Assembly: GCF_964204865.1 (NCBI RefSeq)
Contig: NC_135260.1
Coordinates: 5,642,001-5,706,000, forward strand
DNA: 64,000 bases
From: Styela clava
Taxonomy: Eukaryota
Direction of reading: 5' to 3'
Position numbers and translations under genes: made by a program
The notes under the pieces: model-generated
The model's database searches: none
Told to the model about the DNA's origin: nothing
What the model saw: only the letters and a program-made list of their open reading frames with translations
Shown here: positions 3,468-63,498 of the stretch, piece by piece
Layout: every line of letters starts with the position of its first letter
Numbering within the stretch: the first letter of the stretch is position 1

Positions 3468-6424
3468 ATGTGGAAACGTTCAAAACTCTTCAATTGCAAA
3501 TGGTTGTTTATCATGATAATTGGTGAGATCTTACTTACATAAATAATTCTTACAAAATTACAACTATGGGGAGGCATAAGTATTGCTTCACATTAATTTG
3601 ATAACAGCAAATTTTATTTTAAATTTTTTTTTTTGTCCAATGAATTTGCCTCGATATTAAACCAATCACAATAAATTAGAGATCACATTATGAAAATTTT
3701 AATATGATTTTTCAATTTCTCAAGTGTTTAAAAACAGGAATAAAAAAGTTTCATACATTATATTAATAGCTTAGTTAAGACTTTGTACGTATTACAGATA
3801 TAAACAGATTACATCATTAAAATATGGAGGTCTTTCAATTCCGAAAAATTCAATTTTGAATGCAATTGATCTAGTTTTTGTAATCCTTATAGTACTCATC
3901 ATTGGTCTGAATGGAGCACGAACATGCACTGATTGTCGCAGTGTAACGCTTAGTACAGAGAACAAGAATATCATACATGGACCAAGTAATGAATACAACT
4001 GCAACTGTGATTGGACAATACCAACAAGTATGGAGACAGATCATGAAACTGCAGTTGTTCTGTTGTTACAAAATGTTTCACTTCCAAAGACAACTAGTAG
4101 TGGAAGTATAGACTGCAGCGGAGAAATCAGACTCCCAAGTAAGTTTTAACTGATGTAAGTAGGCTATTCAAGGATGACATCTCCAACATCAAAACATTCG
4201 TTTACTTGACAATATTAATTTGTTTCATGCAGGATGGGATGGATATAAATGTGAATTTCCAAGCAACTACTGTCTTGCATTTGCAACTGCATCAACCGTT
4301 TGCAACATCAACAAAATCAGAGAGAAAATTTCAGTTGCAAATCACACCTGTGATTCAATCATTCCGTGGAATTATGCTGGAGGAAGCCCATACAAGATAC
4401 ATTACTATGCAGCAAACCGTGCTGGTTACACTAAATACTTCACAATACAATACCATGTAATAGATTGCAGACCAACAACAACCACACCTGCACTCAGTGA
4501 GTAAATTCAATATTTTTATGCAATGCTTAATCATGTCTTATGCTCAAGTAGTCACAGATATGCCAATCTATAAAGAACCATAATTATCAAACCCGGGTGA
4601 GGTGGTGGGATGAGGGGAACCTGAGATGTGTAACCTACAACTGGAGTGGGCAAGGTTTTGGACTAGGGGCCAGAAATTTTGCCCATCTAGAATGACGGGC
4701 CATGTAAGTATAACGTGAAAAGTCACATTTTATGAACGATACTTAGTGTTACAAAAGCAAAAGTGGAAAACAATAAGTCTCATGCTAAAACTAAATCAAT
4801 CGCAATCTCAACAAATTCCTTGAGCTATTTTTAGCTAAAATATCAAAATTTAGTTTTAGTTTGGTTATGGCAGCATCAGGCGGGCCAAATTGAACTACCA
4901 AACGATCCGGATTTGGCCCGCAGGCTATAGTTTGCCCATGTCAGTCCTACAATGTGAACACAGTTTAAGTGTAACAACTTAACCCTGTGGTAACACTAGT
5001 GGTACGTACGTGGAAGCTTTCAAGTGGTACGCGAGTAGTTTGAATTATTGCAACAATTAACTTTTGAGTTGGCTAAAATATGGCAACAACGGGTTTATAT
5101 CAGCAGTTCTTGTTTTGAGACAGCCCTCGCCCGCTACTGCCCACCTAAAACGAAACAATGGACAAAACCTTCAACCCCTGATGGCAATCAACGCAAATTC
5201 TATCGTGATTTTGCACGCAATTAACACGTTGTTACTGCATAAAATAAATACTTCGAAACTTTGCAGGAGATCTAAAATGGATGTAGTGCTACATAAAATA
5301 CTATCATAGCGCGTTTCTTGTGCCATGGTTCCCCACCACAAAATAAAGTTTTTTCGGTGGTACGCGGCCAGAGTAAAAAGAACAAAAGTGGTACCGGTCA
5401 GTGGAAGATTGAGAACCGCTGCCTTAACCAATAAGGCCAGGCGATCATGCCCATATTGCTCTTGTTGAAACGATATAACATAATTTCAGGATGTGAGAAT
5501 CAAACTTTTATTACAAAATTTTAGCCACGGTAACTGAGCAAGCAACAACAACAGCAACTCATCAAAAAGATACATCATCTAATAAAATAGACTTTGACTC
5601 AACCAGTGAATCAACCAGAACATCTGGCAATGTTCAATGTTCAACTGAAAACAGTGAAAGCTGCAGCTGCCAAACATCACTGATCATCGCTATCCCAGTA
5701 TCAGGAATTGTGAGTTTGATCGTTGGGGCTTTGTTGACGTTCATAATACCAAGGTAAGCATAGATATTGTATATTAAATGAATGTCAATGAAAATGCATA
5801 AATTACCAAGTGGGCAATCTATCAAGTACAAAAAAATGTGTGCCACTCTGCCTCAGGGTTGACAAAATTTGAATACAAGTTTGAAAAAATAAAACCCAAT
5901 TTCAGCCAATTTTGTATAACAAATTATTTCGTTGAAAATGTTGCCATTTGCAAAATCCAAGTTTCATGGAAAACTTTTGGATACATCTTTTAACTCTGAT
6001 GCCAAAAAAATTTATATCAACTACAGTCTCGGATCCAATTCCAGCTAAATATGACAAACTTGACTGTTTATCGTAGATTCAGTGACGTCAGAAGCAGATA
6101 TTAAAACAGCAAATGATTACCGGTAGTCTCAATTACAGTATCAAGTAAATACATATAGTAATTATTAACTCAGAATCTCAGATTATATTTCTATCAAACA
6201 CCAGGTATTGCAATAACAACAAGAAGAAACCAAAGAACAACGATTCAATGGAAATGGGAAGCATTCAACATCAGCAGCCAACTGTCCATGAACGAACAAC
6301 ATATGAAAACTACACACCAACATCAGATGAAAGTGGATATGAAGTTCCGATTCCAGTTGATAACAAGAATGAACAACAATATGAGATTATAACAACTGGA
6401 AAGGAATATCAATATGATAATTGA
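3468..6424 (+). CDS. Copy 1: CUB-like domain type I membrane receptor with Tyr-motif tail, full length (~337 aa)
   Basis: Exons 3468-3522, 3893-4138, 4233-4496, 5525-5753, 6205-6424. All introns are GT-AG with phases 1,1,1,2 and the frame is open. Signal MWKRSKLFNCKWLFIMII; CDWTIP...YFTIQY; TM SLIIAIPVSGIVSLIVGALLTFII; tail YENY, one YEVP unit, YEII, YQYDN. Confidence 0.88.
4641..4944. mobile_element. hAT-like MITE in intron 3 (also at 10918-11222, 21261-21564, 57320-57634, 62888-63141)
   Basis: Ends C(A/T)GGAGTGGGCAA and TTGCCCATGTCAG. The 8-bp TSD tcctacaa is perfect in copy 4. Confidence 0.65.
4985..5421. mobile_element. hAT-like insertion specific to intron 3 of copy 1
   Basis: Absent from paralogous introns. 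Right end ttgagaaccgctg, TSD acttaacc/ccttaacc. Confidence 0.75.
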
Positions 6425-9388: not shown

Positions 9389-12313
9389 ATGTGGAAACAT
9401 CCAAAACTCTTCAATTGCAAATGGTTGTTTATGCAGATAATTGGTGAGATCTTACTTACTTACAATAAGTTTAGTTACACATTCTGCTGTTACACAACCA
9501 ACTGTGATGGGCATTATTAGTTTCAAATTATTTACAATTACAGTAATTTGAAATTGTCTCACCAAATTATAATAAGCAAATTCTTTAAAATCAAATCGCG
9601 GACAATTGAGGTTATTTAACTTTTGTTTTCAAAACATATTTCACATCCAGATTCAATATAAAAATATTATATAATTTTAACTATTTTGTCTTTCAAATAC
9701 CTCGAATGTTTAAAAAAGGAATAATTAAGTTTTATACAATTATTCATGGATTTAAGAATCTGTAATACAATTGAAAAAGGATTATAAAATATATTTGATT
9801 TATAAATGTGTTTTAAAATTCGTAGTACTTCCAATTAAAAAAAATAAGTTCTATTGCAAATGAATAATCCCTTTTTAGCATTTAGTATTGATCTGAATGA
9901 AGCAGCACCCTGCACTGATTGCTCTAATATCATACTTGGAACAGAGAGCATCAATATAACATATGGACCGAATATGAATGAATACGATTGCAACTGTGAT
10001 TGGACAATACCAACAAGTATGGACACAGATCATGAAACTGCAGTTGTTCTGTTGTTACAAAATGTTTCATTGCCATTGACAACTAGTATTGGAAGTATAG
10101 ATTGCTCTGGAGGAATCAGATTCCCAAGTAAGCTGTATTATACTAATTACCGTACTGTTAATATACTACCGTATGCTATTCTAATATACAGCAACAATGA
10201 ATAAAAAACATCAGTAACTATAAAAATGCATAAAACCTTCACAGGAACGGATAGTTACAAATGTGAATTTTGGTGATCTCTGGTCTACAAAATAGGCTAA
10301 TAACAATGCAAACAAATATGTAATGTTTTAAATTAGAGGTTTGTAAAGCTGCAGTACATAAACAAAGCACACAGACGCTATGCTTATATTTATGACAAGT
10401 TGATACGACATTTGCGGACCCATGTACTTGATTACTGTATACCCTTCTAAAATACAGCAGCGATTAATAACAAAAAAACATTAGTAAATACCAAAAATGT
10501 ATCAACACTTTTATAGGCAATGCTCCTCACAAATGTGATTTTGCAATCAACTACTGTCTTGCATTTGCAACTGCATCAACCGTTTGCAACATCAACATAA
10601 TCAGAGAAAAAATTCCAGTTGCAAATCACACCTGTGATTCAATCATTACATGGAATAAAGCTGGAGGAAGCCCATACAAGATACAATATTATGCAGGAAA
10701 CTATGCTGGTTACACAAAATACTTCACAATACAATATCTTGTAATAGATTGCAGACCAACAACCACAACTGCACTAAGTGAGTAATTTTTTTTTATGCAA
10801 TGCTTAATCATGTCTTATGCTCAAGTAATCACAGATATACCAATCTATAAAAAACCATATTTATCACACCTGGGTGAGGTGGTGGGATGGGGGGAACCTG
10901 AGATGTGTAACCTACAACAGGAGTGGGCAAGGTTTTGGACTAGAGGCCAGAAAGTTTGCCCACCTAGAATGACGGACCATGTAAGTATAACGTGAAAAGT
11001 TACATTTTATGAACGATACTTAGTGTTACAAAAGCAAAATTGGAAAACAATAAGCCTCGTGCCAAAACTAAATTTAATCGCAATCTCAACAAATTCCTTG
11101 AGCTATTTTTGGCTAAAATATCAAAATTTAGTTTTAGTTTGGTTATGGCAGCATCAGGTGAGCCAAATTAAACTACCAAATAAGCCGGATTTGGCCCGTG
11201 GGCTGTAGTTTGCTTATGTCAGTCCTACAATGTTAACACAGTTCAAGTGTAACACCTTAACCACTAAGGCCATACGATCACGCCCATATTGCTCTTGTTG
11301 AACAATATAACTCAATTTCAGGATGTGAGAGTCAAACTTTTATTACAAAATTTTAGCCATGGTAACTGAGCAAGCAACAACAACAGCAACTCATCAAAAA
11401 GATACATCATCTAAAAAAATATACTTTGACTCAACCACTGAATCAACCAGAACATCTGGCAACGTTCAATGTTCAACTGAAAACACAGAATGCAGCAGTT
11501 CCCAAACATCACTGATCATTGCTATCCCAGTATCAGGATTCATGGGTTTGATCATTGGAGCTTTGTTGATGTTCATAATACCAAGGTAAGCATAGATATT
11601 ATATAATAAATGAATGTCAATGAAAATGGATAAATTACCAAGTGGGCAATCTATCAAGTACAAAAAAAATGTGTGCCACTCTCCACCTGAGAGTGATACC
11701 TGCTTCAAGAATGACAAAATTCAAATACAAGTTCGAAAAAATAAAACCCAATCTCAGCCAATTTTGTATAACAAATTATTTTGTTAAAAATGTTGCCATT
11801 TGCAAAATCCAAGTTTCATGGCAAACTATTGGATACATTTATTGACTCTGATGACAAAAAAATTTATATTAACTACAGTTTCGGATCCAATTCCAACTAA
11901 ATATGCCAAACTTGACTGTTTATCGTAGATTCAGTGAAGTCAGAAGCAGATATTAAAACAGCAAATGATTACCGGTAGTCTCAATTACAGTATCAAGTAA
12001 ATACATATAGTAATCATTAACTTTGATTATATTTCTATTAAACACCAGGTATTGCAATAACAACAAGAAGACACCAAAGAACAAAGATTCAATGGAAATG
12101 GGAAGCATTCAAAATCAGCAGCCAACTGTCCATGAACGAACAACATATGAAAACTACACACCAACATCAGATGAAAGTGGATATGAATATCTGAATCAAG
12201 TCGATAAAAAGAATAAACAAAGTGGATATGAAGTTCCGATTCCAGTTGATAACAAGAATGAACGACAATATGAGGTTATAATAACTGGAAAGGAATATCA
12301 ATATGACAATTGA
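9389..12313 (+). CDS. Copy 2: CUB-like membrane receptor, full length (~352 aa)
   Basis: Exons 9389-9443, 9879-10127, 10517-10777, 11357-11585, 12049-12313, open frame. Two tail units (SGYEYL and SGYEVP). Confidence 0.88.
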
Positions 12314-14617: not shown

Positions 14618-14823
14618 GGTACTCCCGTAGTATATGTACCAGGGTTAGGCCATGATTTTCTTCCGATTTTCCTTATTTCAGTTTTACCACAAGTTCGGGG
14701 ACTGTCTGTGTTGGCCAATTGAATATACCACATCATAGGTTTCAATCAATTCATACAACTTGATGTAAAGTAGGAGAACAAAATTAATTACCTCCATATT
14801 GGTATATACAATTCTGGAGTGAC
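14618..14823. mobile_element. Merlin-like MITE upstream of copy 3
   Basis: Same element and insertion site. Confidence 0.7.
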
Positions 14824-15252
14824 GAGTTATCTATAGATATATCAATGAGTAAGTATATTAGCAATTCCAAATAATGTCCATCAAGCACTTGCAATCTTAC
14901 ACTTTTATACAAATGACAAACAAAAATGCCAAGACAATGCATGACACAAGTAGATCATCGCTATGTTGTAATGATATTTCGCCCACATCCTAATTATAAT
15001 AATAAATATAAGGCAGCAATCATTACAAAAAAGAAACCAGAGGGAAGGAAGTGTTTCATAGTCACTGATTCCTATTAACAAGGAGAAATTCTGAATATAA
15101 ATCAGAAGCTTGTTACATCAAGCGTTGAGACAGGTCTTGTATTTTATCAGTTGGATTTTGTCTTTAGCTATGTTAGTACTGTGTAATGATTTGAGTGATT
15201 GAAGAAACAAAGCAAAAAGAAGTTCAAAGAAGTTGCTGAAGATAAACTCAAC

Positions 15253-16756
15253 ATGAGGAAACATTCAAAACTCTTCAATAGCAAATGGTTGTTTATGCAG
15301 ATAGTTGGTGAGATCCCACTTACATAAATAGTTCCAAATCAAGAAATAAATGTACATTTGTTACCCAAAAACATAGTAGCCTGATGAATTCTCATCCAAA
15401 GTCATTCATGAAATAATAATTTTAATATTAGATTTTCATTAATATAAGATTTCTAAATTGTTTAAAAAGAAGAGTAATGGAGTTTTATACAATATAATTC
15501 TCAACCATGTATTAGATTGAGAAAATATCAATTCTATACATATAAACGTGTTTTGGGCTTCATGAGACTGATGAAAATTGGATAGATTTCGCAATGTTGT
15601 AATTGTAAAAACTTATTTCTTTATAGCACTAAGCATCAGTCTGAATGAAGCGGCATCCTGCACTGATTGTTCAAATCCAATACTTGGAACAACCACTTCT
15701 AAACCAAGTAAATCTTAAACAGCATAAAAAATTCAGTTTAAAAGTAAAACATCCAATCCTGAAATAAACTTTCCTTTCAAATTACAGCAGCAACAAATGG
15801 ATGGGAAACAACAACAAAATATCCAGAAGAAATTTCGACAACACTCAAAGCTGAACAGACTACAAAGCTGAACGGTCTACAAACGGAAATTTCGACAACA
15901 CTGAAAGCTGAACCAAATACAAAAGACAAAAGTAATGAAATTTTATTTGTCAAAACAATAGCAATTATCCAATACACAATCATAATAAAAACTAAACTTC
16001 ATGAATTTCAGTTAGTGAAGCTGAGCAGCAAACAACACTATCTGATTCAGACAGAACTGAATCTCATTCAACAACTGATTTGGACAAAAACATCACAGTT
16101 ACCACGGAAACCAATGGAAGTTCTGATTTATTGACAATTGCAATTCCATTGTCAGGAATAGTTGCTTTTATCTTGGGAGCTTTGTCAATCTTTGTCATAC
16201 GAAGGTAACAAGTAAAACAACACATAGTAGCAATAATTTCTCCACAATACTTTCACTTTGAATATCGTTTTGAAAATTCGGCGCAATTTCAAGGTTTCGT
16301 TTGAATGTGGTTGAACAATATGCTAATAAATATTTTTATTAATATTTTGAACCCAGGTATTGCAACAAAAACAAGAAACCGAAAAAGAAAGATTCAATGG
16401 AAATTGGAAGCATCCAACATCAGCAGCCAACTGTCCATGAACGAACAACATATGAAAACTACACACCAACATCAGATGAAAGTGGATATGAAGTTCCGAA
16501 TCAAGTTGATAACAAGAATGAACAAAGTGGATATGAAGTTCCGATTCCAGTTGATAACAAGAATGAACAAAGTGGATATGAAGTTCCGAATCCAGTTGAT
16601 AACAAGAATGAACAAAGTGGATATGAAGTTCCGATTCCAGTTGATAACAAGAATGAACAAAGTGGATATGAAGTTCCGATTCCAGTTGATAACAAGAATG
16701 AACAACAATATGAGGTTGTGAGAAGCGGAGCAGAATACCAATATGAAAATGCGTGA
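15253..16756 (+). CDS. Copy 3: receptor with in-frame deletion of the CUB-like domain, 5 tail repeats (~290 aa)
   Basis: Exons 15253-15307, 15627-15707 (start of exon 2 fused to end of exon 3, 81 nt), 15788-15931, 16012-16204, 16357-16756. Frame is open throughout. Confidence 0.82.
16481..16705 (+). repeat. Coding 45-bp tandem repeat x5 (SGYEVPxxVDNKNEQ)
   Basis: Unit agtggatatgaagttccga(a/t)tc(a/c)agttgataacaagaatgaacaa repeated five times. Confidence 0.95.
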
Positions 16757-20112: not shown

Positions 20113-22863
20113 ATGTGGAAACATTCAAAACTCTTCATTTGCAAATGGTTGTTAATCCAGATAATTGGTGAGATCTTACTTAGATAAATAGTTCCAAATC
20201 AAAAAATAAATGTACATTTGTTACCGAAAAAACATAGTAGCCTGATGAATTCTCATCCAAAGTCATTCATGAAATAATAATTTTAATATTAGGTTTTCAT
20301 TAATATAAGATTTCTAAATTGTTTAAAAATGGAGTAAAGGAGTTTTATACAATATAATTTTCAACCATGTAATGAGATTGAGAAAATAACAATTTTATAC
20401 ATATAAACATGTTTTTGGCTTTACAAGACTGTTAAAATATGGATGGATTTCTCAATGTTGTAATTGTAAAAACTTATTTCTTTATAGCACTAAGCATCAG
20501 TCTGAATGAAGCGGCACCCTGCACTGATTGTTCAAATACAATACTTGGAACAGAAAGTAAGAATATCACATATGGACCAAGTAATGAATACAACTGCAAC
20601 TGTGATTGGACGATACCAACAAGAATGGACACAGATCATGGAACTGCAGTTGTTCTGGTGTTACAAAAAAATTCAATGCTAATGACAACTGGTAGTGGAA
20701 TTACAGACTGCTCTGGGGAAATCAGATTCCCAAGTAAGCTATATTATACTATTCTAGCTATATTATACTATTACTATACTAATATACGACAACCGTACAG
20801 CAACAATTATTAATAAAAAAACATTAGTAAATACAAAATTGTATCAATACTTTTACAGGTACTGTTTCTCATAAATGCGACTTTCCAAGAAACTACTGTC
20901 TTGCATTTGCAACTGCATCAACCGTTTGCAACATCAACAAAATCAGAGAGAAAATTCCAGTTGCAAATCACACCTGTGATTCAATCATTTCATGGAATGA
21001 AGCTGGAGGAAGCCCATATAAGATACGATATTATGCAAGAAATTATGCTGGTTACTCAAAATACTTCACAATACAATATCTTGTAATAAATTGCAGACCA
21101 ACAACCACACCTGCACTGAGTGAGTAATTTTTTATTTATGCAATGCCTAATCATGTCTTATGCTCAAGTAATCACAGATATACCAATCTATAAAGAACCA
21201 TATTTATCACACCCGGGAGAGGTGGTGGGATGGGGGGAACCTGAGATGTGTATCCTACAACTGGAGTGGGCAAGGTTTTGGACTAGAGGCCAGAAAGTTT
21301 GCCCACCTAGAATGACGGGCCATGTAAGTATAACGTGAAAAGTTACATTTTATGAACGATACCCAGTGTTACAAAAGTAAAAGTGGAAAACAATAAGCCT
21401 CGTGCCAAAACTAAATTAATCGCAATCTCAACAAATTCCTCGAGCTATTTTTAGCTAAAATATAAAAATTAAGTTTTAGTTTGGTTATGGCAGCATCAGG
21501 CGGGCCAAATTGAACTACCAAACGTTCCGATTATGGCCCGCAGGCTATAGTTTGCCCATGTCAGTCCTACAATGTCAACACAGTTTAAGTGTAACATTTT
21601 AACCACTAGGGCCAGGCGACCACGCCCATATTGCTCTTGTTGAACGATATATCTCAATTTCAGGATGTGAGAATCAAACTTTTATTACAAAATTTTAGCC
21701 ACGATAACTGAGCAAGCAACAACAATAGCAACTCATCCAAAAGATACATCATCTTATGAAACATTCTCAACCACTGAATCAACCAGAACCGCTGACAACA
21801 TTCAATGTCCCATTGAAGACTGTGAATGCACCAGCACCCAAGTATCAGAGGAGAATACAGTACCAAACTATTCTCAAACATCACTGATCATTGCTATTCC
21901 AGTGTCAGGAATTGTGGGTTTGATCATTGGAGTTTTGTTGACACTCATAATACCAAAGTAAGCATTGATGGTATAAATTAGATGAATATCATTTATGTTA
22001 CTCAAGTATGCTTGAATACAAGATATCAACAAAGGATTCAACCCAGTACTGTTAAGTCAGTGATAATCTCCATCTTCTGATTGCAAGATTACCAAAATTC
22101 TAACCCAGTCTCAAGCTGCTAATCATGAGTCTACAAGATTTTGACCTCAACTCTCAACTCCACAAATAATAAAAATGACTGACTCTATCTTCTGATGCCT
22201 ATGTTCTATTGAATCAAGTTGATTTTACCAATCTAATTCAAAGTTTAGAGAAAAAAACATAGTACTGTATCCAGATACTGCTGGATGACAATATTTTAAC
22301 TTTGATCATTGTGGAAGTTGCAAGCCTCATTAGTTTCAATTAGAAACGCTAATGACTATAGAATCTTAATAATTTATAATTTTAATTATAACTATTGAAA
22401 CTTGAACAACTAACTCCAGCCATAGTGCATGATTGCCAACAGGTAAATTCATGTTGATAATAAATGGAACACAACCAGTGTTAGCAGCCATGTTTCCAAT
22501 AGAAGCCTCAAATATCAAATTCACATTTTTGTGTGGGACCCAGTGAGGTAATGAAGCAAATGTCAAAATTAAAAGTGATTAGTCTCAGTGACTCTATCTA
22601 TGAATTATTCATCAACTTAGATTATATTTCTATCCAACACCAGGTACCGCAACAACAACAACAAGAAACCAAAGAACAAAGATTCAATAGAGATTGGAAG
22701 CATTCAACAACAGCAGCCAACTGTACATGAACGAATAACATATGAAAACTACGCACTAACATCAGATGAAAGTGCATATGAAGTTCCGATTCCAGTTGAT
22801 AACAAGAATGAACAACAATATGAGGTTATAATAACTGGAAAGGAATATCAATATGACAATTGA
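20113..22863 (+). CDS. Copy 4: CUB-like membrane receptor, full length (~346 aa)
   Basis: Exons 20113-20167, 20488-20733, 20859-21119, 21699-21957, 22644-22863, open frame. One tail unit (SAYEVP). Confidence 0.88.
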
Positions 22864-25886: not shown

Positions 25887-27255
25887 ATGAGGAAACATTC
25901 AAAACTCTTCAATAGCAAATGGTTGTTTATGCAGATAGTTGGTGAGATCCCACTTACATAAATAGTTCCAAATCAAGAAATAAATGTACATTTGTTACCC
26001 AAAAACATAGTAGCCTGATGAATTCTCATCCAAAGTCATTCATGAAATAATAATTTTAATATTAGATTTTCATTAATATAAGATTTCTAAATTGTTTAAA
26101 AAGAAGAGTAATGGAGTTTTATACAATATAATTCTCAACCATGTATTAGATTGAGAAAATATCAATTCTATACATATAAACTTGTTTTGGGCTTTATGAG
26201 ACTGATGAAAATTGGATGGATTTCGCAATGTTGTAATTGTAAAAACTTATTTTTTTATAGCACTAAGCATCAGTCTGAATGAAGCGGCATCCTGCACTGA
26301 TTGTTCAAATACAATACTTGGAACAACCACTTCTAAACCAAGTAAATCTTAAACAGCATAAAAAATTCAGTTCAAAAGTAAAACATCCAATCCTGAAATA
26401 AACTTTCCTTTCAAATTACAGCAGCAACAAATGGATGGGAAACAACAACAAAATATCCAGAAGAAATTTCGACAACACTCAAAGCTGAACAGACTGCAAA
26501 GCTGAACGGTCTACAAACGGAAATTTCGACAACACTGAAAGCTGGACCAAATACAAAAGACAAAAGTAATGAAATTTTATTTGTCAAAACAATAGCAATT
26601 ATCCAATACACAATCATAATAAAAACTAAACTTCATAAATTTCAGTTAGTGAAGCTGAGCAGCAAACAACACTATCTGATTCAGACAGAACTGAATCTCA
26701 TTCTACAACTGATTTGGACAAAAACATCACAGTTACCACGGGAACCAATGGAAGTTCTGATTTATTGACAATTGCAATTTCATTGTCAGGAATAGTTGCT
26801 TTTATCTTGGGAGCTTTGTCAATCTTTGTCATACAAAGGTAACAAGTAAAACAACACATAGTAGCAATAATTTCTCCACAATACTTTCACTTTGAATATT
26901 GTTTTGAAAATTCGGTGCCATTTCAAGGTTTCGTTTGAATGTGGTTGAACAATATGCTAATAAATATTTTTATTAATATTTTGAACCCAGGTATTGCAAC
27001 AAAAACAAGAAACCGAAAAAGAAAGATTCAATGGAAATTGGAAGCATCCAACATCAGCAGCCAACTGTCCATGAACGAACAACATATGAAAACTACACAC
27101 CAACATCAGATGAAAGTGGATATGAAGTTCCGATTCAAGTTGATAACAAGAATGAACAAAGTGGATATGAAGTTCCGATTCCAGTTGATAACAAGAATGA
27201 ACAACAATATGAGGTTGTGAGAAGCGGAGCAGAATACCAATATGAAAATGCGTGA
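25887..27255 (+). CDS. Copy 5: near-identical duplicate of copy 3 (CUB-deleted), 2 tail repeats (~245 aa)
   Basis: Exons 25887-25941, 26261-26341, 26422-26565, 26646-26838, 26991-27255. Offset of 10634 from copy 3. Confidence 0.8.
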
Positions 27256-31065: not shown

Positions 31066-32371
31066 ATGTGGAAATATTCAAAACATATCAATTGCAAATG
31101 CTTGTTTATGCAGATAATTGGTGAGAAACTGAGATCTTACTTGAGAAGTCGACATTTTTTAACTAAAAACATAATAACCTAATGAATTCTCATACAAATT
31201 TAAGCATAAAATATTGATTTTAATATGAGATTTTTATTATTAATATCAGATTGCTCAATAGTTTAAAAACAATAATAATGGAGTTTTACACATTATACCT
31301 TTTATTAAACCCCGAAATAAGATTGAAAAAATATCAATTCCAGGTACTCCTGTAGTATGTGAACCAAGATGGCAGACACCGGAACGTAGTATGTGTATCA
31401 GGTTAGAGTTAGGCCATAATTTCATCTATTGTATTTGAGCTATTGCGTCTATATAAAGGTGTTATGTGATATTGTGTCGATATAATGTGATGTTTTTATT
31501 AATACAAAAAAAACAAAAATTTCAGGTACAAATACTATGGGAGTCACTTGGCTAGTCCCCGAACTCGAAATAGAACTAAAATGGGAAAATTGGAATAAAA
31601 TTATGTCTTAACCCTAACCTGGTACACATACAACATTCCGAGGCCCGCCGTCTTGGTTCACATACTACGGGAGTACCCAATTATATAGGTATGAATACCA
31701 TTACCGTATATATAACTTATAAGTGTGTTTTTGGAAATATAAGCCTGCAAGAAAATTTGAAGGATTTTTAAATGTTATTGTGAAACATTTTATAGCACTC
31801 AGCATCAGTCTGAATGAAGCAGCAATATGCACTGATTGTTCAAATACAATACTCAGAACAGAGAGTGTGAATATCACATATGGACCAAGTAATGAGTACA
31901 GCTGCAACTGTGATTGGACAATACCAGAAGATATGGACACAGATCATGAAACTGCTGTTGTTCTGTTGTTACAAAATTTTTCATTACCGAGGACAACTAG
32001 TAGCAGTACTACACACTGCTCTGGGAGAATCAGATTTCCAAGTAAGTGTTCAGTACAATACAAGTATAAAGTAATTAAAAACAAATGATGCTTCACTTGT
32101 TAGAGCAATATAATTGTTCTACAAGTATCAAATGGTCTGGGACATTTGCAATTAACTCAACAATACTAATGTAATTTATGCAGGCACTGATGGATACAAA
32201 TGTGAATTTGCAAGCAACTACTGTCTTGTATTCGAAACTACATCAACCACTTGCAACATCAACAAAATCAGAGAGAAAATTCCAGTTGCAAATCACACCT
32301 GTGATTCAATCATTCCATGGGATAAAGCTGGAGGAATCCCATATAAGATACAATACTATGCAGGAAACTGA
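31066..32371 (+). pseudogene. Copy 6: 3'-truncated copy, either a secreted CUB-like fragment (~162 aa) or a pseudogene
   Basis: Exons 31066-31120, 31796-32041, 32184-32371. Homology stops at ...YYAGN with TGA at 32369-32371. No stalk, TM or tail exons follow. Confidence 0.75.
31343..31677. mobile_element. Related long-TIR MITE in intron 1 of copy 6
   Basis: About 80-bp inverted ends (ggtactcc.gtagtatgtgaaccaaga...). Degenerate 8-bp TSD caattcca/caattata; the empty site in paralogues reads caattcta. Confidence 0.75.
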
Positions 32372-33287: not shown

Positions 33288-35085
33288 ATGTGGAAACATT
33301 CAAAACTCTTCAAATGCAAGTGGTTGTTTATGCAGATAATTGGTGAGATCTTACTTACATTAAGTTTAGTTACACATTCTGCTGTTACACAACCAACTGT
33401 GATGGGCATTATTAGTTGTTATTCGAAAGTTTCAAATTATTTACAATTACAGTACCGGTAATTTCAAATTGTCTTATCAAATTATAATAAGCAACTTCTT
33501 TAAATTCAAATCGCGAGAAAGGAGGTTATTTAACTTTTGTTTTCAAAACATATTTCACATCCAGATTCAATATAAAAAATTATATAATTTCAACTACCTC
33601 GACTTTTAAATACCTCGAACGTTAAAAATAGGAATAATTAAGTTTTATACAATTATTCATGGATTTAAGAATCTGTAATACAATTGAAAAAGGATTATAA
33701 AATATATTTGATTTATAAATGTGTTTTAAAATTCGTAGTTATTCCAATTAAAAAAAAGTTATATTGTGAATGAATAACTTAATTTCTTTTTAGCATTTAG
33801 TATTGGTCTGAATGAAGCAGTACGATGCACTGATTGTTCACCTAAAATACTTGAAACAGAGAGCAAGAATATCACATATGGACCAGGTAATGAATACAAC
33901 TGCAATTGTGATTGGACAATACCAACAAGTATGGACACAGATCATGAAACTGCAGTTGTTCTGTTGTTACAAAATGTTTCACTGCCAAGAACAACTGGTA
34001 TTGGAAGTACAGACTGCTCTGGAGAAATCAGATTCCCAAGTAAGTACAATACTCGAATATGCTAGATCCATTAAATACTAAATCACAATTATTGGTCGAG
34101 AGACATAGCTGCAGTCAGGATTTTCCAAAAGGGAGTGTTCAAAATCAATAATAACCATGTAGAGCTGACGAAAACGATAGGCAGTTTTAACAAAAGTATG
34201 CATGTAAATTCGTACACAATAACAGCTGGTACTCTTCTGGTTATCCTGTAATTTTTAAAAGGGGGAGGGCGTTGAACCTGAAACACCCATCTGACTGCGC
34301 TACTGTCTACAAATATCAGATTTCCTGGTACCACTAATAATTTATTCAAGAATACTAATGTGCTTTTTACAGGCACTGATGGATACAAATGTGAATTTGT
34401 AAGCAACTACTGCTTTGTATTTGCAACTACATCAACCACTTGCAACATCAGCAAAATCAGAAAGAAAATTTCAGTTGCAAATCACACCTGTGATTCAATC
34501 ATTCCATGGAATACAGTTGGAGGAAGCCCATACAAGATACAATACTATGCAGGAAACCATGCTGGTTACACAAAATACTTCACAATACAATACCTTGTGG
34601 TGGACTGCAGATCTCCAACAGCCACTTTTAAACCAAGTATCATTAAGTCATAAATAGCAAAGAAACTTTTAGTTCAGCAGTAAAACATCCAAACCTAAAA
34701 ATGAACTTTTTTCTTTCAAATTACAGCAACAACAAATGGATGGGAAACAACAACAAAAAATTCAGAAGAAATTTCAACAACACTGAAAGCTGAACAAATT
34801 TCAAAGGACAAAAGTAATAAAAGTTTATTTATCAAAACAATAGCAATAATCCAATACACAATGACATTAAATTTAAACTTATTATAAATTCCAGTTACCA
34901 AAGCTGCGCAGCAAACAACAATATCGGATTCAGACAGAACTGTATCTCATTCTACAACTGATTTGGACAAAAACGCCACCGTTACCACGGTAACCAATGG
35001 AAGTTCTGCTTCACTGATGATCGGAATTCCAGTGTCAGGAATAGTTGGTTTTATCTTTGCAGCTTTGTCAATGTTTTTCATATAA
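33288..35085 (+). CDS. Copy 7: CUB-like domain, stalk and TM with no cytoplasmic tail (~280 aa)
   Basis: Exons 33288-33342, 33794-34039, 34373-34636, 34727-34813, 34895-35085. TAA at 35083-35085 sits where paralogues have CAA/CGA, right after the TM. The tail exon is absent and nested transposons occupy its place. Confidence 0.75.
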
Positions 35086-35417
35086 AGGTAACAAGTAAAA
35101 CAACACATAGTAGCAATATTCTCCTCGCAATACTTTCACTTTTTATATTGTTATTGAATATTGCATTGCATTTACAATATTGTTTTAAGAATTAAGTATT
35201 CATATATCCTCACATATAAGCCGAACTATTGTTCTGTTTTACTTTTATTAATATCGATAAGAATTGTTTCAAAATCATTCCAATTCATCCTCACGATCGC
35301 TTATCGTGTATCACTATCGTATAGAACAGGGTGGTCCAAACCCAGGCCCGCCGTTTCATTATCTGTCACTGAGTTTTTTGATGGTTTCAGCATGATCTGG
35401 CTTGATATGTGACAATT

Positions 35418-35620: not shown

Positions 35621-35694
35621 GTGACAATTTAATGATCAATGTGTTTGGACAATAAATTGTTTGATTTGTATTGCACTGTTTACCTGTTCCTGAC

Positions 35695-45915: not shown

Positions 45916-48260
45916 ATGTGGAAACATTCAAATCTCTTCAATTGCAAATGGTTGTTTATGCAGATAATTAGTGAGATTTTACTTACTAAAACTAAAAGCT
46001 AAAAATGAACAAATAAATGTACATTTGTCAATTAAAAACATAATAGTCCAATGTATTCTCATATAAATTTATTCATACAATAAATATTTTAATATTAAAT
46101 TTTCACTAATATTATATCGCTCAATTGTTTGAAAACAAGAGAAATAGAGTTTTATACATTATAACTTTTAAATTCTGTAATAAGATATGGAATATATAAA
46201 TATATGTATAAGAGCATTTTGGCAATATAAGCCCGCAAAAAAATTTGGATTGTTGAAATTTTATTGTAAAACTTTTCATAGCACTCAGCATCAGTCTGAA
46301 TGAAGCATGGGGACCATGTGCTGATTGTCCCAATATCATACTTGGAATAGAGAGTAAGAATATCACATATGGACCAAGTAATGAATACAACTGCCAATGT
46401 GATTGGACAATACCAACAAGTATAGAGATAGATAATGAAACTGCAGTTGTTCTGTTGTTACAAAATGTTTCACTGCCGATCACAACTGGTACTGGAAGTA
46501 TAGACTGCTCTGGGTCAATCAGATTCCCAAGTAAGCGTATATTATACTATTTTACTATTACTATACTACCGTACAGCAACAATTAATAAAAACATCACTA
46601 AATACATAACTATATCAATACTTTTACAGGCACTAATTCTCATAAATGTGATTTTCCAAGCAACAACTGTCTTGCGTTTGCAACTTCATCAACCATTTGC
46701 AACATGAACAAAATCAGAGAAAATATTCCAGTTACAAATCACACCTGTGATTCAATCATTCCATGGAATAACGTTGCAAGAGGAAGCCCATACAAGATAC
46801 AATACTATGCAGGAAACCGTTATGGATACACAAAATACTTCACAATTCAATATCTTGTGATAGATTGTAGACCAACAACAACCCCACCAGAAGCAGGTAA
46901 GTCATATACTTCTTGGTTTGCACATCTACACCAACACATAATTGTTTAATTCTCATAATGAAGATAAATTTATTTTCAGCGACAACAATGCAACAGAAAC
47001 AAACAAAAAAGGTTCCATTAACACTTGGAAGAATTATATGTGAAACAACAACTTTTGAAACCACCAAAATTACTGGTATGAATGAATCAAGTAAGTTCAT
47101 AAGTTTGCTTGTACGTCATAATTTTATGTCGATTTTCCTTATTTTAGTTATATTACCAGTTCAGAGACTGTCTGTGTTAGCCAAGTGAATATAAATAACC
47201 CTGCCTATAGGCTTTTGTCCCTTGATGTAAAAGTAGGGGAAAAAGATTAGTTACCTCCATATTGGTACACATACTTCTGGAGTGCCGTTGTTTTAAGATC
47301 AAATTCCTTGGATTTGTAAATAATCCTGTGTGAGATGTTTGACAGTTCAATAAAGAGTTTCTCTCCAAGATTCTGTTTTTCCAAACACTAGTAGATACTT
47401 ACCCAGCAGTGGCTGGCTGATTGTGTGTTCAGAGCGTAAGGCAAATGATACGTCTTGAAAAGCTATTCCAGTTGTAAAAAATCACTAAAGCCAAACAATT
47501 CTTTTCTAGAAATGACTACAAACACAAAAGAAACTGCCAGTGATCAAAAAATGTATAGAAAACTCAGATTCTGCATCCCTAACAATGATTGCAGTAGGTA
47601 CATCATCAGGATTTATTGTAGGAATCATCATCGGAGTTTTGACAACTTGCTTGATTCAGAGGTAAACAAGACAATTTACTGTTTTGTAAAATTAAAATAT
47701 TTCAAGAGCAATAAACTATTTAGTTTAGCTTATTTGATGCTCAAAAACAAAAAAAAAACTTTTGGAAATGGCTGTTCTAAGTGCTAACTTAACCAATTCA
47801 TTATTACCAAAACTTTATTAAAACCATAAAAAAAATTTTTTTTGATGGAAGATCGTATTTTACACTCGTTTGATGGATAATCTGCTTGATAAATAATAAA
47901 AATCTTCAATTTGTATCATTTTATTCAATATTAGTGTAATGAAAATAATTACATTATAATCCAGTCAAATACAGTATAAAAGGCTGTCAATGCAAATGTC
48001 AGTGCACCGTAATCATATTATTAAAAGTTGTAAAAATTATTGTAATTTGTAGATTATTGAGAAAAAAGAAGCAGAAAAACCAAATGGAAATGCAGAGCAG
48101 TCAACATCATCAACATACCACCATGAAAAATGCAGAATATGAAAATCATGAACCAACTTCAAACGGAAACGGATACGAAGTTATAATTCCAGTTGATAAT
48201 AAGAATGAAAGACCATATGAAGAGATAATATGTGGGATGGAATCTGCATATGAAAAATAA
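45916..48260 (+). pseudogene. Copy 8: copy with the most divergent stalk and tail; apparent +1 frameshift before the TM
   Basis: Exons 45916-45970, 46282-46530, 46630-46896, 46980-47090, 47510-47661, 48053-48260. Exon 47510-47661 is 152 nt where 151 is needed. Removing one A from the A6 run at 47546-47551 restores the TM (LTMIAVGTSSGFIVGIIIGVLTTCLI) and the tail (YENH, YEVI, YEEI). Confidence 0.7.
47115..47286. mobile_element. Partial Merlin-like MITE in an intron of copy 8
   Basis: Matches the body and right TIR (...catacttctggagtgcc). Confidence 0.6.
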
Positions 48261-51730: not shown

Positions 51731-53801
51731 ATGGATTCAAAAATAAAAATGATGACCTGCCAAAGCAGCATATGGATTCTCCTTGGTAAGAACATTTTCC
51801 ATATAGAATACTAATAGGATTTATTCATATTTATTCTGGAAGGGAGCAAATCATCTTGTCATGTGACAAATTATGGCCTCTCTGCCAGTTCCATGTTGGA
51901 TATGGGAAGAGTTAACTAGTTTATCTCCCACAATTATTCAGTACCAAAAGCAGCACATATTACCGAAATTCTAGATATAGTGCTCAAAAGTGGGCTTAAC
52001 CTGTTCTGGTAGGACAACAAATATCTTGTACCAGTCCATGAAAAACAATTGATTGAAGGTGAACGGTACAGATGCTATGAACACACAACTGCACCGATAT
52101 AGTAAAACTAGCAGTCAAAATGAAGAAATCCGAAATGATCTTTATATATTAATTGTGAATATTGAAAATATTACACCAATCTACAGTAAGCATAAATTAT
52201 ACAGAATGAGAAATGAATACCTTGTATATTTTTTTCAGCTATTATGATCAATGTGAATGAAGCATATCAATGCCCTAGTTGTCCCAAAATAACACTTGGA
52301 ACAGAGAACAAGAATATCACATATGGACCAAGTAATGAGCGGGACTGCCAATGTGATTGGACAATACCAACAAGTATGGCCACAGATCACGAAACTGCAG
52401 TTGTTCTGTTGTTACAAAATGTTTCATTGCCAATGACGGCTGGTAGTGGAAGTAGAGACTGCTCAGGAGAAATCAGATTTCCAGGTGAGTATTCAATACT
52501 CTTACGCAGGTAAAACTAGTTGTTGATGAAAATAAACTTTGTGCAGGTGCTAGTGGACACAGATGTGATTTTGCAAACAACCAGTGTATTGTTTTTACAA
52601 CTGAATCAACCATTTGTAACATGAACATAATCAGAGAGAAAATTCCAGTTGCAAATCACACCTGTGATTCAATCATTCCATGGAATAATGCTGGAGGAAG
52701 TCCATATAATGTACAATACTATTCCAGAGGCTATGTTGGTTACACAAAATACTTCACAATACAATATCTTGTGGTAGATTGTAGATCTTCAGCAACAACT
52801 TTTAAACCAAGTAAGTCATAAACAGCAAAAACATTCAGTTTAACAGTAAAACATCCAACACTAAAAATGAATCTTTTTTTTCTCAAAATACAGCAACAGC
52901 AAATGGATGGGAAACAACAACAAAGAATCCAATAGAAATTTCGACAACAGAAAAAACTGAACGGACTACAAAAAACAAAAGTAATAAAAGTTTATTTGTC
53001 GAAACAATAGCAATCATCCAATACACAATCATAGTCAAAATTATTATAAATTTTAGTTACCGAAGCTGAGCAGCGAACAACACAATCTGATTCCGGCATA
53101 ACTAATTCTCATTCCATATGTGATTTGGACAAAAACATCACCATCACCACGGGAATCAATGGAAGTTCTGATTCACTGATGATCGCAATTCCAGTTTCAG
53201 GAATAGTTGGTTTTATCTTTGGAGCTTTGTCAATGTCTTTCATACAAAGGTAAGAAGTAAAATAACAGTAGCAATATTTTCCCCTCGTTACTTTCAATTT
53301 GTATATTGCTTTTGAATATTGTTTTGAGAAATAGGCATAAGTCATTCCGGGTTTTGTTCGAATATGATTAAACAATATGCTATTAAATATTTTTAACCCA
53401 GGTATTGCAACAAGAACAAGAAGAAATTGAAGAACAAAGATTCAATGGAAATGGGAAGCATTCAACATCCAGAGCCAACTGTCCATAAACGAACAACATA
53501 TGAAAACTACACACCAACATCAGATGAAAGTGGATATGAAGTTCCGAATCAAGTTGATAATAAGAATGAACAAAGTGGATATGAAGTTCCGAATCAAGTT
53601 GATAACAAGAATGAACAAAGTGGATATGAAGTTCCGAATCAAGTTGATAACAAGAAGGAACAAAGTGGATATGAAGTTCTGAATCAAGTTGATAATAAGA
53701 ATGAACAAAGTGGATATGAAGTTCCGATTCAAGTTGATAACAAGAATGAACAACAATACAAAGTTATGACAACTGGAAAAGAATATGAATATGAGAATTA
53801 A
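51731..53801 (+). CDS. Copy 9: full-length receptor with a distinct first exon, 5 tail repeats (~414 aa)
   Basis: Exons 51731-51785 (MDSKIKMMTCQSSIWILL, 55 nt, gtaag donor; inferred), 52239-52484, 52547-52810, 52894-52980, 53057-53249, 53402-53801, open frame. Confidence 0.82.
53529..53753 (+). repeat. Coding 45-bp tandem repeat x5
   Basis: Same unit repeated five times in the tail exon of copy 9. Confidence 0.95.
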
Positions 53802-56124: not shown

Positions 56125-58537
56125 ATGTGGAGACATTCAAATCTCTTCAATTGCAAATGGTTGTTTATGCAGATAATTGGTGAGATCTTACTTGCATAAA
56201 AGTTACACATAAACAAATAAGTTCCAAATCAACAAATAAATGTAATTTGTTAACCAAAAACATAATACCCAATGAATTCTCATCCAAATTTAACCATGAA
56301 ACAATAATTTAATTATAATATTAGATTTACATTATTATTAGACTGCACAATTATTTAAAAACAAGAATAATAGAGTTTTATACATTATAACGTTTAAACC
56401 CTGTAACAAGATAGAGGAAATATCAATTGTATAAGTATAAGCACGCTTTTAGCTTTATGACCCGCAAAAACATTTGCAGAATTTTTGAATGTGATTGAAA
56501 AACTTATTTCTTTATAGTGCTTAGCATCAGTCGGAATGAAGCGGCACCCTGCACTGATTGCTCCAATGAAATACTTGGAACAGAGAGCAAGAATATCACA
56601 TATGGACCAAGTAATGAACACAATTGCAACTGTGATTGGACAATACCAGAAGCTATGGACACAGATCATGAAACAGATCATGTTGTTGTTCTGTTGTTAA
56701 AAAATTTTTCATTACCGAGGACAACTGGTAGTGGAAGTACACGCTGCTCTGGAGAAATCAGATTCCCGAGTAAGTGTTCAATACAATACAAGTGTTCAGT
56801 AAAGTAATTAAAAACACATGATGCTTCACTTGTTAGAGCAATATAATTGTTCTACAAGTATCAAATGGTCTGGGATAATTGTAATTAACTCAACAATACT
56901 AATGTAATTTATGCAGGCACTGATGGATACAAATGTGAATTTGCAAGCAACTACTGTCTTGTATTCGAAACTACATCAACCACTTGCAACATCAACAAAA
57001 TCAGAGAGAAAATTCCAGTTGCAAATCACACCTGTGATTCAATCATCCCATGGAATAGAGTTGGAGGAAGCCCATACAAGATACAATACTATGCAGGAAA
57101 CTTTGCTGGTTACTCAAAATACTTTACAATACAATATCTTGTGGTAGATTGCAGACCAACAACCACACCTGCAATCAGTGAGTAATTTCATTTTTTATCT
57201 AATGCTTAATCATGTCTTATGCTCAAGTAATCACAGATATACCAATCTATAAAGAACCATATTTATAACACCCTGTTGAGGTGGTTAGATGGGGGGAACC
57301 TGAGATGTGTAACGTACAACAGGAGTGGGCAAGGTTTTTGGACTAGAGGCCAGAAATTTTGCCCAACTTGAATGACGGGCCATGTTAGTATAACGCGAAA
57401 AGTTACATTTTATGAACGATACTTAGTGTTACAAAAGCAAAAGTGGAAAACAATAAGCCTTATGCCAAAACTAAATTAATCGCAATCTAAACAAATTCTT
57501 TGAACTATTTTTTAGCTAAAATATCAAAAATTTAAAAATTTAGTTTCAGTTTGGTTATGGCAGCATCAGGTGGAACAAATTAAATTACCAAACGATCCAG
57601 ATTTGGCCCGCGGGCTGTAGTTTGCCCATGTCAGTCCTACAATGTCAACACAGTTCAAGTGTAACACTTTAACCACTAGGGCCAGGCGACCATGCCCAAA
57701 TTGCTCTTGTTGAACGAAATAACTCAATTTCAGGATGTAAGAATCAAACTTTTATTACAAAATTTTAGCAACGGTAACTGAGCAAGCAACAACAATAGCA
57801 ACTCATCAAAAAGATACATCATCTTATAAAACATACTTCAACTCAACCAGTGAATCAACCAGAACATCTGGCAACGTTCAATGTTCAACTGAAAATAGTG
57901 AATGCTGCAGCTGCCAAACGGCACTGATCATTGCTATCGCAGTATCAGGAATTGTGAGTTTGATCGTTGGAGCTTTGTTGATGTTCATAATACTAAGGTA
58001 AGCGTAGATAGGAAGCATAGATAAATGTCGATGGAAATGCATGAATTTACAAGTCCACCAAGAACTGCGCAATCCATCATGTATAAAAATATTTGACAAT
58101 AACAAAACATTTGGTATGAAAATGTTGCAATTTGCAAACTTATAGGTTTCATGATATACTTTTTGATAGATTTTTTGAGTCAACAACTACAGTTTCGGAT
58201 CCAGTTCCATCTAAAATTCCAAACTATCATTTCGTCGTAGATCCAGTGAGATGAAGAAGCAGATATTAAACCAAATACATGCATCTATCAACTAACTTAT
58301 ATTTTATCAAACACCAGGTATTGCAACAACAACAACAAGAAACCGAAGAACAAAGATTCAATGGAAATGGGAAGCATTCAACATCAGCAGCCAACTGTCC
58401 ATGAACGAACAACATATGAAAACTACACACCAACATCAGAGGAAAGTGGATATGCAATTCCGGATCAAGTTGATAAAAAGAATGAACAACAATATGAGGT
58501 TATAACAACTGGAAAAGAATATCAATATGACAATTAA
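56125..58537 (+). CDS. Copy 10: CUB-like membrane receptor, full length (~338 aa)
   Basis: Exons 56125-56179, 56518-56769, 56917-57177, 57769-57997, 58318-58537, open frame. Tail unit reads SGYAIP. Confidence 0.88.
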
Positions 58538-61613: not shown

Positions 61614-63498
61614 ATGTGGAAATATTCCAAATTATTCAAATGCAAATGGTTGTTTATGCAGATAATTGGTGAGATCTTACTTACATTAAGTTTAGTAACA
61701 CATTCTGCTGTTACACAATCAACTGTGATGGGTATTATTAGTTGGTATTCGAAAGTTTCAAATTATTTACAATTACAGTAATTTGAAATTGTCTCATCAA
61801 ATTATGATAACAACTTCTTTAAAATCAAATCGCGGACAATTGAGGTTATTCAACTTTTGTTTTCAAAACATATTACACATCCAGATTCAATATAAAAATA
61901 TTATATAATTTCAACTATTTTGTCTTTCGAATACCTCGAATGTTTAAAAAAGGAATAATTAAGTTTTATACAATTATTCATGGATTTAAGAATCTGTAAT
62001 ACAATTGAAAAAGTATTATAAAATATATTTGATTTATAAATGTGTTTTAAAATTCGTAGTATTTTAAAAAAAAAAGGGTATATTGCAAATGAATAACTCA
62101 ATTCCTTTTTAGCATTTGGTATTGGTCTGAATGAAGCAGCACAATGCACTGACTGTCCAACTACAAAACTTGGAACAGAGAGCAAGAGTATCACATATGG
62201 ACCAATTTATAAATACAACTGCTGGTGTGATTGGACAATACCAACAAGTATTGAGACAGATCATGAAACAGCAGTTGTTCTGTTGTTGCAGAATGTTTCA
62301 CTGCCATTGACAACTGGTAGTGGACATACAGACTGCTCTGGAGAAATCAGATTCCCAAGTTAGATATATTTTAAAACTACTCAACTATTACTACACTACT
62401 ACGTTATATACAATTCTAATATACAGAAACAATTAACAAAAAAAAACATTAATACCGGTAAATACAAAATTGTATCAATGCTTTTACAGGCACTGATGGA
62501 TACAAATGTGAATTTGCAATCAACTACTGTCTTGTATTTGCAACTGCAGTAACCATTTGCAATATCAACAAAATCAGAGAGAAAATTCCAGTTGCAAATC
62601 ACACCTGTGATTCAATTATTCCATGGAATAAAGCTGGAGGAAGTCCATATGAGATACAATACTATGCAGCAAACCGTGCTGATTACTCAAAATACTTCAC
62701 AATACAATATCTTGTAATAGATTGCACACCAACAACATCTGCACTGAGTGAGTAATTTTTTTTTTATGCAATGCCTAATCATGTCTTATGCTCAAGTAAT
62801 CACAGATATAGCAATCTATAAAGAACCATATTTATCACACCCGGGTGAGGTGGTGGGATGGGGGAACCTGAGATGTGTAACGTACAACAGGAGTGGGCAA
62901 GGTTTTTGGACTAGGGGCCAGAAAGTTTGCCCACCTAGAATGACGGACCATGTAAGTATAACGTGAAAAGTTACATTTTATGAACGATACTTAGTGTTAC
63001 AAAAGCAAAAGTGGAAAACAATAAGCCTCGTGCCAAAACTAAATTAATCGTTTTAGTTTGGTTATGGCAGCATCAGGTGGGACAAATTAAACTACCAAAT
63101 AAGCCGGATTTAGTCCGCGGGCTGTAGTTTGCCCATGTCGGTCTTACAATGTCAACACAGTTTAAGTGTAACACCTTAACCACTAGGGTCAGGCGACCAT
63201 GCCCATATTGCTCTTGTTGAACAATATAACTCAATTTCAGGATGTGAGAATCAAACTTTTATTACAAAATTTTAGCCACGATAACTGAGCAAGCAACAAC
63301 AACTCATCCAAAAAATACATCATCTGATAAAATATACTTTGATTCAACCACTAAATCAACCAGAACATCTGGCAAAACTCAAAGTCCTATTAAAGACTGT
63401 GAATGCGACAGCACTGAAACATCACTGATCATTGCTATTCCAGTATCAGGAATTGCGGGTTTGACCATTGGAGTTTTGTTGACACTCATAATACCAAA
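61614..63498 (+). CDS. Copy 11: CUB-like membrane receptor, partial (tail exon expected beyond the window)
   Basis: Exons 61614-61668, 62113-62358 (weak gttaga donor), 62490-62747, 63276-63498, open frame. The following intron resembles the last intron of copy 4. Confidence 0.8.

Follow-up and report, generated by a model that had tools for sequence, protein, structure and literature searches.

How many phosphotyrosine docking sites a receptor tail carries, and whether a short coding repeat can change that number, is the question raised by one locus in a 64,000-nucleotide stretch of Styela clava DNA (the window), where a first-pass annotation had seen a 45-bp coding repeat and proposed that signalling valency is tunable by unequal crossover. 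The repeat at 16481-16705 was confirmed as in frame, located in the last exon and cytoplasmic. Tandem Repeats Finder reported a period of 45 with 5.0 copies and 97% matches at 16479-16705, and self-match at a lag of 45 reached 176 of 180 positions at the repeat, whereas none of 1000 shuffles exceeded 72. Read in codon phase, the units begin at 16481, 16526, 16571, 16616 and 16661, and differ by a variable pair of residues, which in unit order is NQ, IP, NP, IP and IP. The same program found related arrays at 12174-12263 (2 copies), 27113-27204 (2) and 53527-53753 (5).

Self-comparison showed that the window is a tandem array, from which 11 gene models were built (Table 1). All of these lie on the + strand, have introns bounded by GT and AG, and agree in intron phase. 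Four of them match RefSeq at 99-100%, as copies 1, 10 and 11 are 100% and copy 2 is 99.4% identical to Styela clava proteins named 'uncharacterized'; for copy 11, the match to P0026, which has one unit, extends over 260 aa. Copy 9 is equal in length and sequence to P0033 by inspection, and only the ectodomain of copy 8 is modelled in RefSeq (P0021). In the full-length product, a signal peptide (assigned by eye) is followed by a Cys-rich domain, which takes up ~150 residues and two exons, and then by a Ser/Thr stalk, a transmembrane (TM) segment without charge and a Tyr-rich tail encoded by a single exon. Four product types are present in the cluster, namely full-length, CUB-less, tail-less and broken, and this tandem family follows a birth-and-death mode of evolution.

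Table 1. Features of the window (positions are those of the whole stretch).
Feature	Position	Strand	Remarks
Copy 1, full length, 1 unit (6332-6376)	3468..6424	+	100% to P0013
Copy 2, full length, 2 units (12176-12265; YEYL, YEVP)	9389..12313	+	99.4% to P0005
Copy 3, exon 1, signal peptide start (by eye)	15253..15307	+	Corresponding copy 5 joint seen spliced (GT..AG) in X5, X6
Copy 3, fused exon: CUB exon 2 (5' end) and CUB exon 3 (final 20 nt), in frame	15627..15707	+	
Copy 3, Thr-rich stalk exon, internal 57-nt duplication	15788..15931	+	
Copy 3, stalk/TM exon	16012..16204	+	TM ~16128-16199, no charged residue (hydropathy)
Copy 3, tail exon, ends in stop	16357..16756	+	
Copy 3, order of the tail		+	Juxtamembrane Cys and basic patch, YENY (16451-16462), five units, YEVV (16709-16720), YQYEN (16736-16750)
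Five 45-bp units, SGYEVPxxVDNKNEQ each, one YxxP Tyr per unit	16481..16705	+	Copy 3 tail exon
Copy 4, full length, 1 unit (22771-22815)	20113..22863	+	
Copy 5, CUB-less as copy 3, 2 units (27115-27204)	25887..27255	+	Identical to P0055
Copy 6, broken off inside CUB exon 3	31066..32371	+	Without stalk, TM, tail
Copy 7, CUB + stalk + TM, no tail exon	33288..35085	+	Decoy-like or decaying
Copy 8, extra stalk exon 46980-47090	45916..48260	+	Tail YEN, YEVI-x10-YEEI
Copy 9, full length, 5 units (53529-53753)	51731..53801	+	Four YEVP, one YEVL
Copy 10, full length, 1 unit (58445-58489; YAIP)	56125..58537	+	100% to P0010
Copy 11, exons as far as TM	61614..63498	+	Tail past window end

Several irregularities were recorded along the array. 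Past its break, copy 6 (32368-32700) is 93% alike to 60733-61061, upstream of copy 11, and the break is a deletion or recombination junction. In copy 8, the TM exon (47510-47661) and its acceptor are in different frames close to an A6 run at 47546, which reflects either a pseudogene or a homopolymer error. The first exon of copy 9 (51731-51785) is unrelated to the others, yet equal in length and phase, and the region upstream of this copy contains 76-bp and 182-bp tandem repeats (49933-50077 and 50565-50904). An inverted fragment of the exon 1 region (38899-39043) lies amid upstream-like sequence (37535-39163), a remnant of a lost copy, and 182 bp at 44653-44834 match their own reverse complement at 85%, possibly as a small inverted-repeat element.

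The nature of the ectodomain was approached by modelling. A model built from a 29-row alignment (pLDDT 83.6, pTM 0.75) had CUB-bearing chains as the best 21 of 50 structural matches, with Z of 7.1-8.9 and rmsd ~3 Å over ~100-110 residues; the top match reached Z 8.9 and rmsd 3.0 with 110 aligned residues, a Z near 8 being moderate. The chains matched include C1s, Gpr126, TSG-6, neuropilins, MASP-1, Kremen and spermadhesin, with 9-19% identity in the top rows. For a poor model of the full protein (pLDDT 43.9), the highest VIA Z with CUB chains was 7.4. No Foldseek match at E <= 0.001 was obtained with either model, a neuropilin CUB ranking first at E 0.01 for the ectodomain; feature matches to CUB clusters in the Atlas (0.84-0.88) are leads only, and Pfam returned no CUB family for eight exon queries or eight full proteins. 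The Pfam matches to Topo_VI_alpha, RIFIN and TMEM154 were rejected as due to repeats or to stalk/TM composition. As modelled, the ectodomain is a divergent, Cys-rich CUB fold of ~150 residues with insertions, and the architecture of the family, a single-CUB type I membrane receptor with a repeat tail, is close to certain. Across 28 pairs of eight window copies the ectodomain had a dN/dS of 0.67, with fixed cysteines and variable patches; the pairwise value for one-unit tails (7 copies) was 0.54.

Credible relatives beyond S. clava were not found among the collections searched, where other ascidians may be absent. A representative search gave 16 matches, and among the seven new ones checked five were from S. 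clava and two were repeat proteins (P0046, P0048); another match, P0050, is repetitive. A profile search was weak, as its yield was 2 of 3353 candidates and known members were not among them. S. clava also has divergent members whose Tyr tails are of other kinds, namely P0043, P0044 (four YEN sites) and P0049, on another sequence. Among the papers listed from the open literature, none was on this CUB receptor family.

The unit counts reported earlier, one in copies 1, 4, 8 and 10, two in copies 2 and 5 and five in copies 3 and 9, were all reproduced, for a total of 18 units over copies 1-5 and 8-10. Copy 7, which had been taken for a zero-repeat form, is no such allele: a stop (35083-35085) closes its TM exon and no tail exon follows in 35086-45900, so that the whole tail is gone; P0029 ends alike. 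The proposal that the repeat sets the number of docking sites applies to only one class of putative site, as each unit adds one tyrosine and the total per tail in the window varies from 6 to 10, but two YxN sites and one YEV[IV] site are fixed. In copy 3 there are five fixed tyrosines besides the juxtamembrane one, in YENY, YEVV and YQYEN. YxN is a Grb2-type SH2 site, and YENY, cited as such a motif, is indeed present but outside the repeat and fixed. All five units of copy 3 carry the claimed YxxP, whereas one unit each in copies 2, 9 and 8 reads YEYL, YEVL and YEVI, respectively. In the census of 20 loci, YxxP occurred in 35 of 42 units (YEVP in 33), the other seven being YEYL, YEVI, YEYF or YEVL. 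The invariance of the unit tyrosine was set aside as evidence, since the census pattern demanded it and the units are too alike.

That YxxP arrays of p130Cas bind Crk and Nck is in print (PMC8791637): when phosphorylated they bind Crk-II and Nck, and migration needs at least four sites. No paper pairing YEVP with an SH2 domain was found in the open literature, so the partner predicted for the units is based on the general YxxP rule alone. SH3, Src-binding and Cas-homology domains were absent from the gene models and Pfam scans, and the putative motifs for docking of Grb2, Gads and PLC-gamma and for palmitoylation, in the manner of LAT, are two YxN sites and a juxtamembrane Cys assigned by sequence.

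If the repeat instead doubled the first half of an ITAM-like pair, the functional unit would be a tyrosine pair for a tandem-SH2 enzyme (Syk/Shark or SHP2) and not a series of Crk/Nck sites. The nearest ITAM-like form, YEVI-x10-YEEI in copy 8, P0009 and P0022, points in this direction, as do the YEYL and YEVL units and the spacing of the tail tyrosines, 14-15 residues apart. However, the predominance of YEVP argues against it, and the spacers between units, of 10-11 residues, exceed the 6-8 usual in an ITAM (YxxL/I-x6-8-YxxL/I). The hemITAM consensus, given as [ED][ED][ED]xYxxL in PMC12582321, was likewise absent from the units. A tandem-SH2 enzyme as the partner of the repeat is thus quite improbable, and a scaffold for SH2 proteins in general is the likely role of the tail.

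The number of units clearly varies between genes. Among 20 current RefSeq loci, seven have one unit, eight have two, three have three and two have five, and eight models of an older annotation range from one to six. LOC120347069 has five units in the current annotation (P0033, copy 9) and four in the older (P0034), a close paralogue (P0030) having three; sequence differences suggest that the older annotation comes from another animal, and the orthology at LOC120347069 is uncertain. Two isoforms of one locus, P0020 and P0039, are one unit apart, perhaps because reads of a shorter allele were modelled as an intron; a true 45-nt GT..AG intron within the repeat was rejected on inspection of the unit. 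As claimed, copies 3 and 5 are near-identical and three units apart, with a single 135-nt gap and 38 mismatches in 3739 bases (14201-18074).

This closeness, 1.0% difference, together with the fact that no contig spans the array, is what one would expect if two haplotypes had been placed in tandem or the repeat had been mis-sized in the assembly. Such an artefact is very improbable. A third near-identical flank (1-728) and four CUB-less loci on one sequence are more than two haplotypes could supply, the units of copy 3 differ among themselves at two sites, and older models have 3, 4 and 6 units. In addition, raw reads of another sample (X15, 6% read) contained 13 reads with 11 different starts that run past three units, stepping back 90 nt at the end of the copy 5 array, the best of them with 69 letters on its shorter side. 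Arrays of more than three units therefore exist in unassembled DNA, and such reads could stem from any paralogue at least 95% alike.

The two variable sites of the unit occur in all four combinations (AATCAA, ATTCCA, AATCCA and ATTCAA), which indicates exchange between units or repeated mutation. To this extent the proposed unequal crossover is supported, but copy 5 cannot derive from copy 3 by one crossover, as its array begins with ATTCAA, which no single exchange among the units of copy 3 would yield; both have thus changed since their common ancestor.

In copy 3, the gene carrying the reported repeat, the loss of the CUB domain had been missed. Both copy 3 and copy 5 have an in-frame deletion that fuses the beginning of CUB exon 2 with the final 20 nt of CUB exon 3, with a 4-nt AACA microhomology at the fusion (15688-15691 in copy 3), and the extracellular part that remains in copy 3 is one CxxC and ~104 residues of Ser/Thr stalk. 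With no CUB to bind ligand, copy 3 would depend on its stalk or on co-clustering for any action. Four CUB-less loci are in current RefSeq (P0041, P0053, P0054 and P0055, with 3, 5, 2 and 2 units) and one CUB-less model, P0056, with three units, is in the older annotation. Positions 1-728 of the window match, at ~98%, the sequence that flanks copies 3 and 5 on their downstream side, and another CUB-less copy is therefore probably located just upstream of the window. In P0051 and P0052, annotated isoforms from CUB-less loci, the fused exon is skipped as well, which removes the last CxxC. The 57-nt duplication in the stalk exon (15829-15923) is present in copies 3 and 5 and absent from 7 and 9.

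Four sequencing runs (X1, X5, X6 and X15) were compared with copy 5. In contigs of X5 and X6, from two studies, all four introns of copy 5 were skipped GT..AG, which did not occur in X1 and X15, both DNA-type runs; X5 and X6 are presumed to be RNA from this intron skipping alone. One X5 contig (depth 6) covers the entire fused exon with its exon 1 and exon 3 sides, a form that the X6 contigs did not have, so the CUB-less transcript is spliced. At 26311, the sole differing site in the fused exon, the X5 RNA agrees with copy 5 and not with copy 3. Contigs of both X5 and X6 also join an intact end of CUB exon 3, through the same 20 nt, to the stalk exon, with an overlap of ~40 nt only. The repeat is likewise spliced into transcripts of the family.

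These data bear on the main rival, neutral minisatellite turnover, which fits the same architecture and differs on tuning only. It holds that the tail signals while slippage within a disordered stretch lets the number of units drift, unseen by selection, and that copy 3 arose recently by deletion and, still transcribed, is turning into a pseudogene. The coding sequences of copies 3 and 5 differ by six replacement changes and one silent change in 597 nt (9 changes in 631 nt of introns), numbers that are small but in which no purifying selection is seen, and a 'tunable' repeat would imply a selected function. The other evidence in favour of drift is that 15 of 20 loci hold one or two units, that adjoining copies are truncated or frameshifted and that a CUB-bearing parent with the same 20-nt junction persists in X5 and X6. 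Seven of 42 units without Pro at +3 also speak against tuning, and with copies 6 and 8 broken in the same cluster, many changes may be unselected. Against drift, each of the five CUB-less proteins, four from current loci and one from an older model, has an open frame and has lost none of the tail tyrosines, and the CUB-less form is spliced. Drift of this kind is possible, although on balance doubtful.

A second class of tail was found in eight of 31 homologs (P0001, P0011, P0012, P0016, P0017, P0023, P0025 and P0028), with the same ectodomain but a tail that contains an N-x-x-Y site and a C-terminal YAVV or YSVV. In all seven full proteins with two YAVV/YSVV motifs, the pair is 29 or 33 residues apart. 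Ectodomain identity was 0.729 between the classes versus 0.715 and 0.748 within them (7 YAVV-tail and 17 YEVP-tail proteins, leaving out P0001 and short or duplicate models), and on the ectodomain tree the tail class was unclustered, with 6 changes versus 6.3 in shuffled data. In an AU test, a single YAVV-tail clade was not rejected (p-AU 0.171) and the tree was nearly a star, so that exchange of ectodomains is no more than a possibility. Both classes are annotated on one sequence of 22,065,457 bases. Similar ectodomains, different tail classes and a single cluster together make up the pattern of paired receptors. A broader form of the ITIM allows Ser at -2, and SIYAVV or SLYAVV in P0001, P0016, P0023 and P0025 fits it; from the stricter definition (I/L/V)xYxx(I/L/V) in PMC12582321 the class departs, having A, C or S at this position. 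YAxV also recalls Csk-binding bacterial motifs (PMC3593179).

An immune or recognition role of the family is fairly probable. A role in adhesion or gamete recognition could also be considered, with the tail tyrosines serving actin coupling or YxxPhi endocytic sorting, as the CUB fold is common to spermadhesins, neuropilins and cubilin and both YEVI and YEVV match YxxPhi. It is nevertheless improbable, because opposed tails, tail-less members and fast ectodomain change in a tandem cluster typify paired immune receptors, as described in PMC12582321.

Compared with known systems, the family resembles neuropilin, Kremen and Neto in having the CUB fold on a type I membrane protein, but has a single CUB of ~150 residues with insertions and no Pfam match, a multi-Tyr tail and tens of paralogues. 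Vertebrate paired receptors (KIR, LILR, NITR/NILT) have a shared ectodomain, differing tails, decoys and a birth-and-death cluster; in contrast to these, the Styela ectodomain is CUB and not Ig or lectin, and the putative activating members have a Tyr array in themselves and lack charge in the TM segment. LAT-type adaptors (PMC10525366) share with copies 3 and 5 the lack of a folded ligand domain, a single TM segment, a juxtamembrane Cys and a disordered multi-Tyr tail with YxN, although the extracellular part of LAT is short, whereas these copies keep ~104 stalk residues and arose by deletion from a CUB receptor; homology was not found.

The closest parallel in an ascidian is the FcoR family of Botryllus schlosseri (PMC12582321), also clustered, copy-variable type I receptors with Tyr tails, in which core-1 YxxI/L/V motifs number 1-4 per gene and core-2 pairs are 29-33 residues apart, the same spacing as in the YAVV class. 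Core-1-type motifs are present in Styela tails as YEVV, YEVI and YEII, whereas core-2 [A/D]VYxxV is only approached, as the residues before the Tyr differ. FcoR ectodomains are Ig, while the Styela model matches CUB chains; FcoR genes switch motifs by alleles and splicing, while in Styela a minisatellite multiplies one YxxP site. No partner gene family was seen in the window. The substrate domain of p130Cas/BCAR1 likewise has many YxxP in a disordered region that binds Crk-II and Nck (PMC8791637), but it is cytosolic, with 15 divergent motifs in fixed number, in contrast to near-identical units in a receptor tail that vary between paralogues. In CagA of Helicobacter pylori (PMC4623810) the EPIYA-C segment is a tandem pY segment in one to six copies at the membrane, and duplication of one such segment can raise SHP2 binding more than 100-fold. 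Its effect of copy number on the binding of SH2 proteins was measured, whereas that in Styela is putative; CagA is a bacterial effector with the tandem-SH2 protein SHP2 as partner, and Styela has an animal's own receptor with YxxP. Neither p130Cas nor CagA is homologous.

Taken as a whole, the best explanation of the locus, to which we give a probability of about 0.55, is a receptor with a CUB domain and a Tyr tail in which the repeat adds adaptor sites, opposed by the YAVV class. As no enzyme and no charged TM residue are present, the receptor probably signals through its own tail. Ligand would cluster the CUB receptor and a Src- or Syk-family kinase would phosphorylate the tail, whereupon Grb2-type adaptors would be recruited to the two fixed YxN sites and a Src-type SH2 to the fixed YEV[IV] site, while every repeat unit would add a pYEVP site for an SH2 adaptor of the Crk/Nck/Vav/Abl class. 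The YAVV-tail class would supply an opposing phosphatase or Csk signal, and copy 7, which has no tail, may be a decoy. Homologs of Src, Syk, SHP-1, Vav, Itk, Grb2 and Crk are expressed in a related ascidian (PMC12582321), which reportedly lacks LAT and SLP-76 (PMC12582321, PMC12065747). Unit number would shift by misaligned exchange or slippage between units, and more units would raise avidity for one adaptor class, most from one to few units. Tuning of valency by unit number is plausible but unproven: that the number measurably changes output has close to an even chance, tilting slightly against, and that it is selected for this effect is unlikely.

A bolder reading takes the CUB-less genes, copies 3 and 5 together with two further loci, for a newborn transmembrane adaptor, created by the microhomology deletion, that would co-cluster with CUB receptors through the stalk as a LAT/SLP-76-like platform in a lineage said to have neither LAT nor SLP-76, its minisatellite setting valency and threshold against YAVV-tail paralogues. 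We consider this quite improbable; if true, a germ-line minisatellite would set each animal's activation threshold.

Each element, ascidian paired Tyr-motif receptors, multivalent YxxP scaffolds and variable pY repeats, is already known, but among the papers listed from the open literature none described a CUB-based cluster in which a minisatellite-multiplied YxxP occurs with headless, tail-less and YAVV-tail members. Invertebrate chordates tell self from non-self by germ-line receptors. With the Styela locus, a solitary ascidian offers a candidate cluster of paired receptors, CUB-based instead of Ig-based, in which small deletions can turn a receptor into an adaptor-like or decoy product. Valency tuning has been shown for a bacterial effector and for Cas; here, in an animal's own receptor, natural tails with one to six near-identical YxxP sites provide a ready series for testing it.
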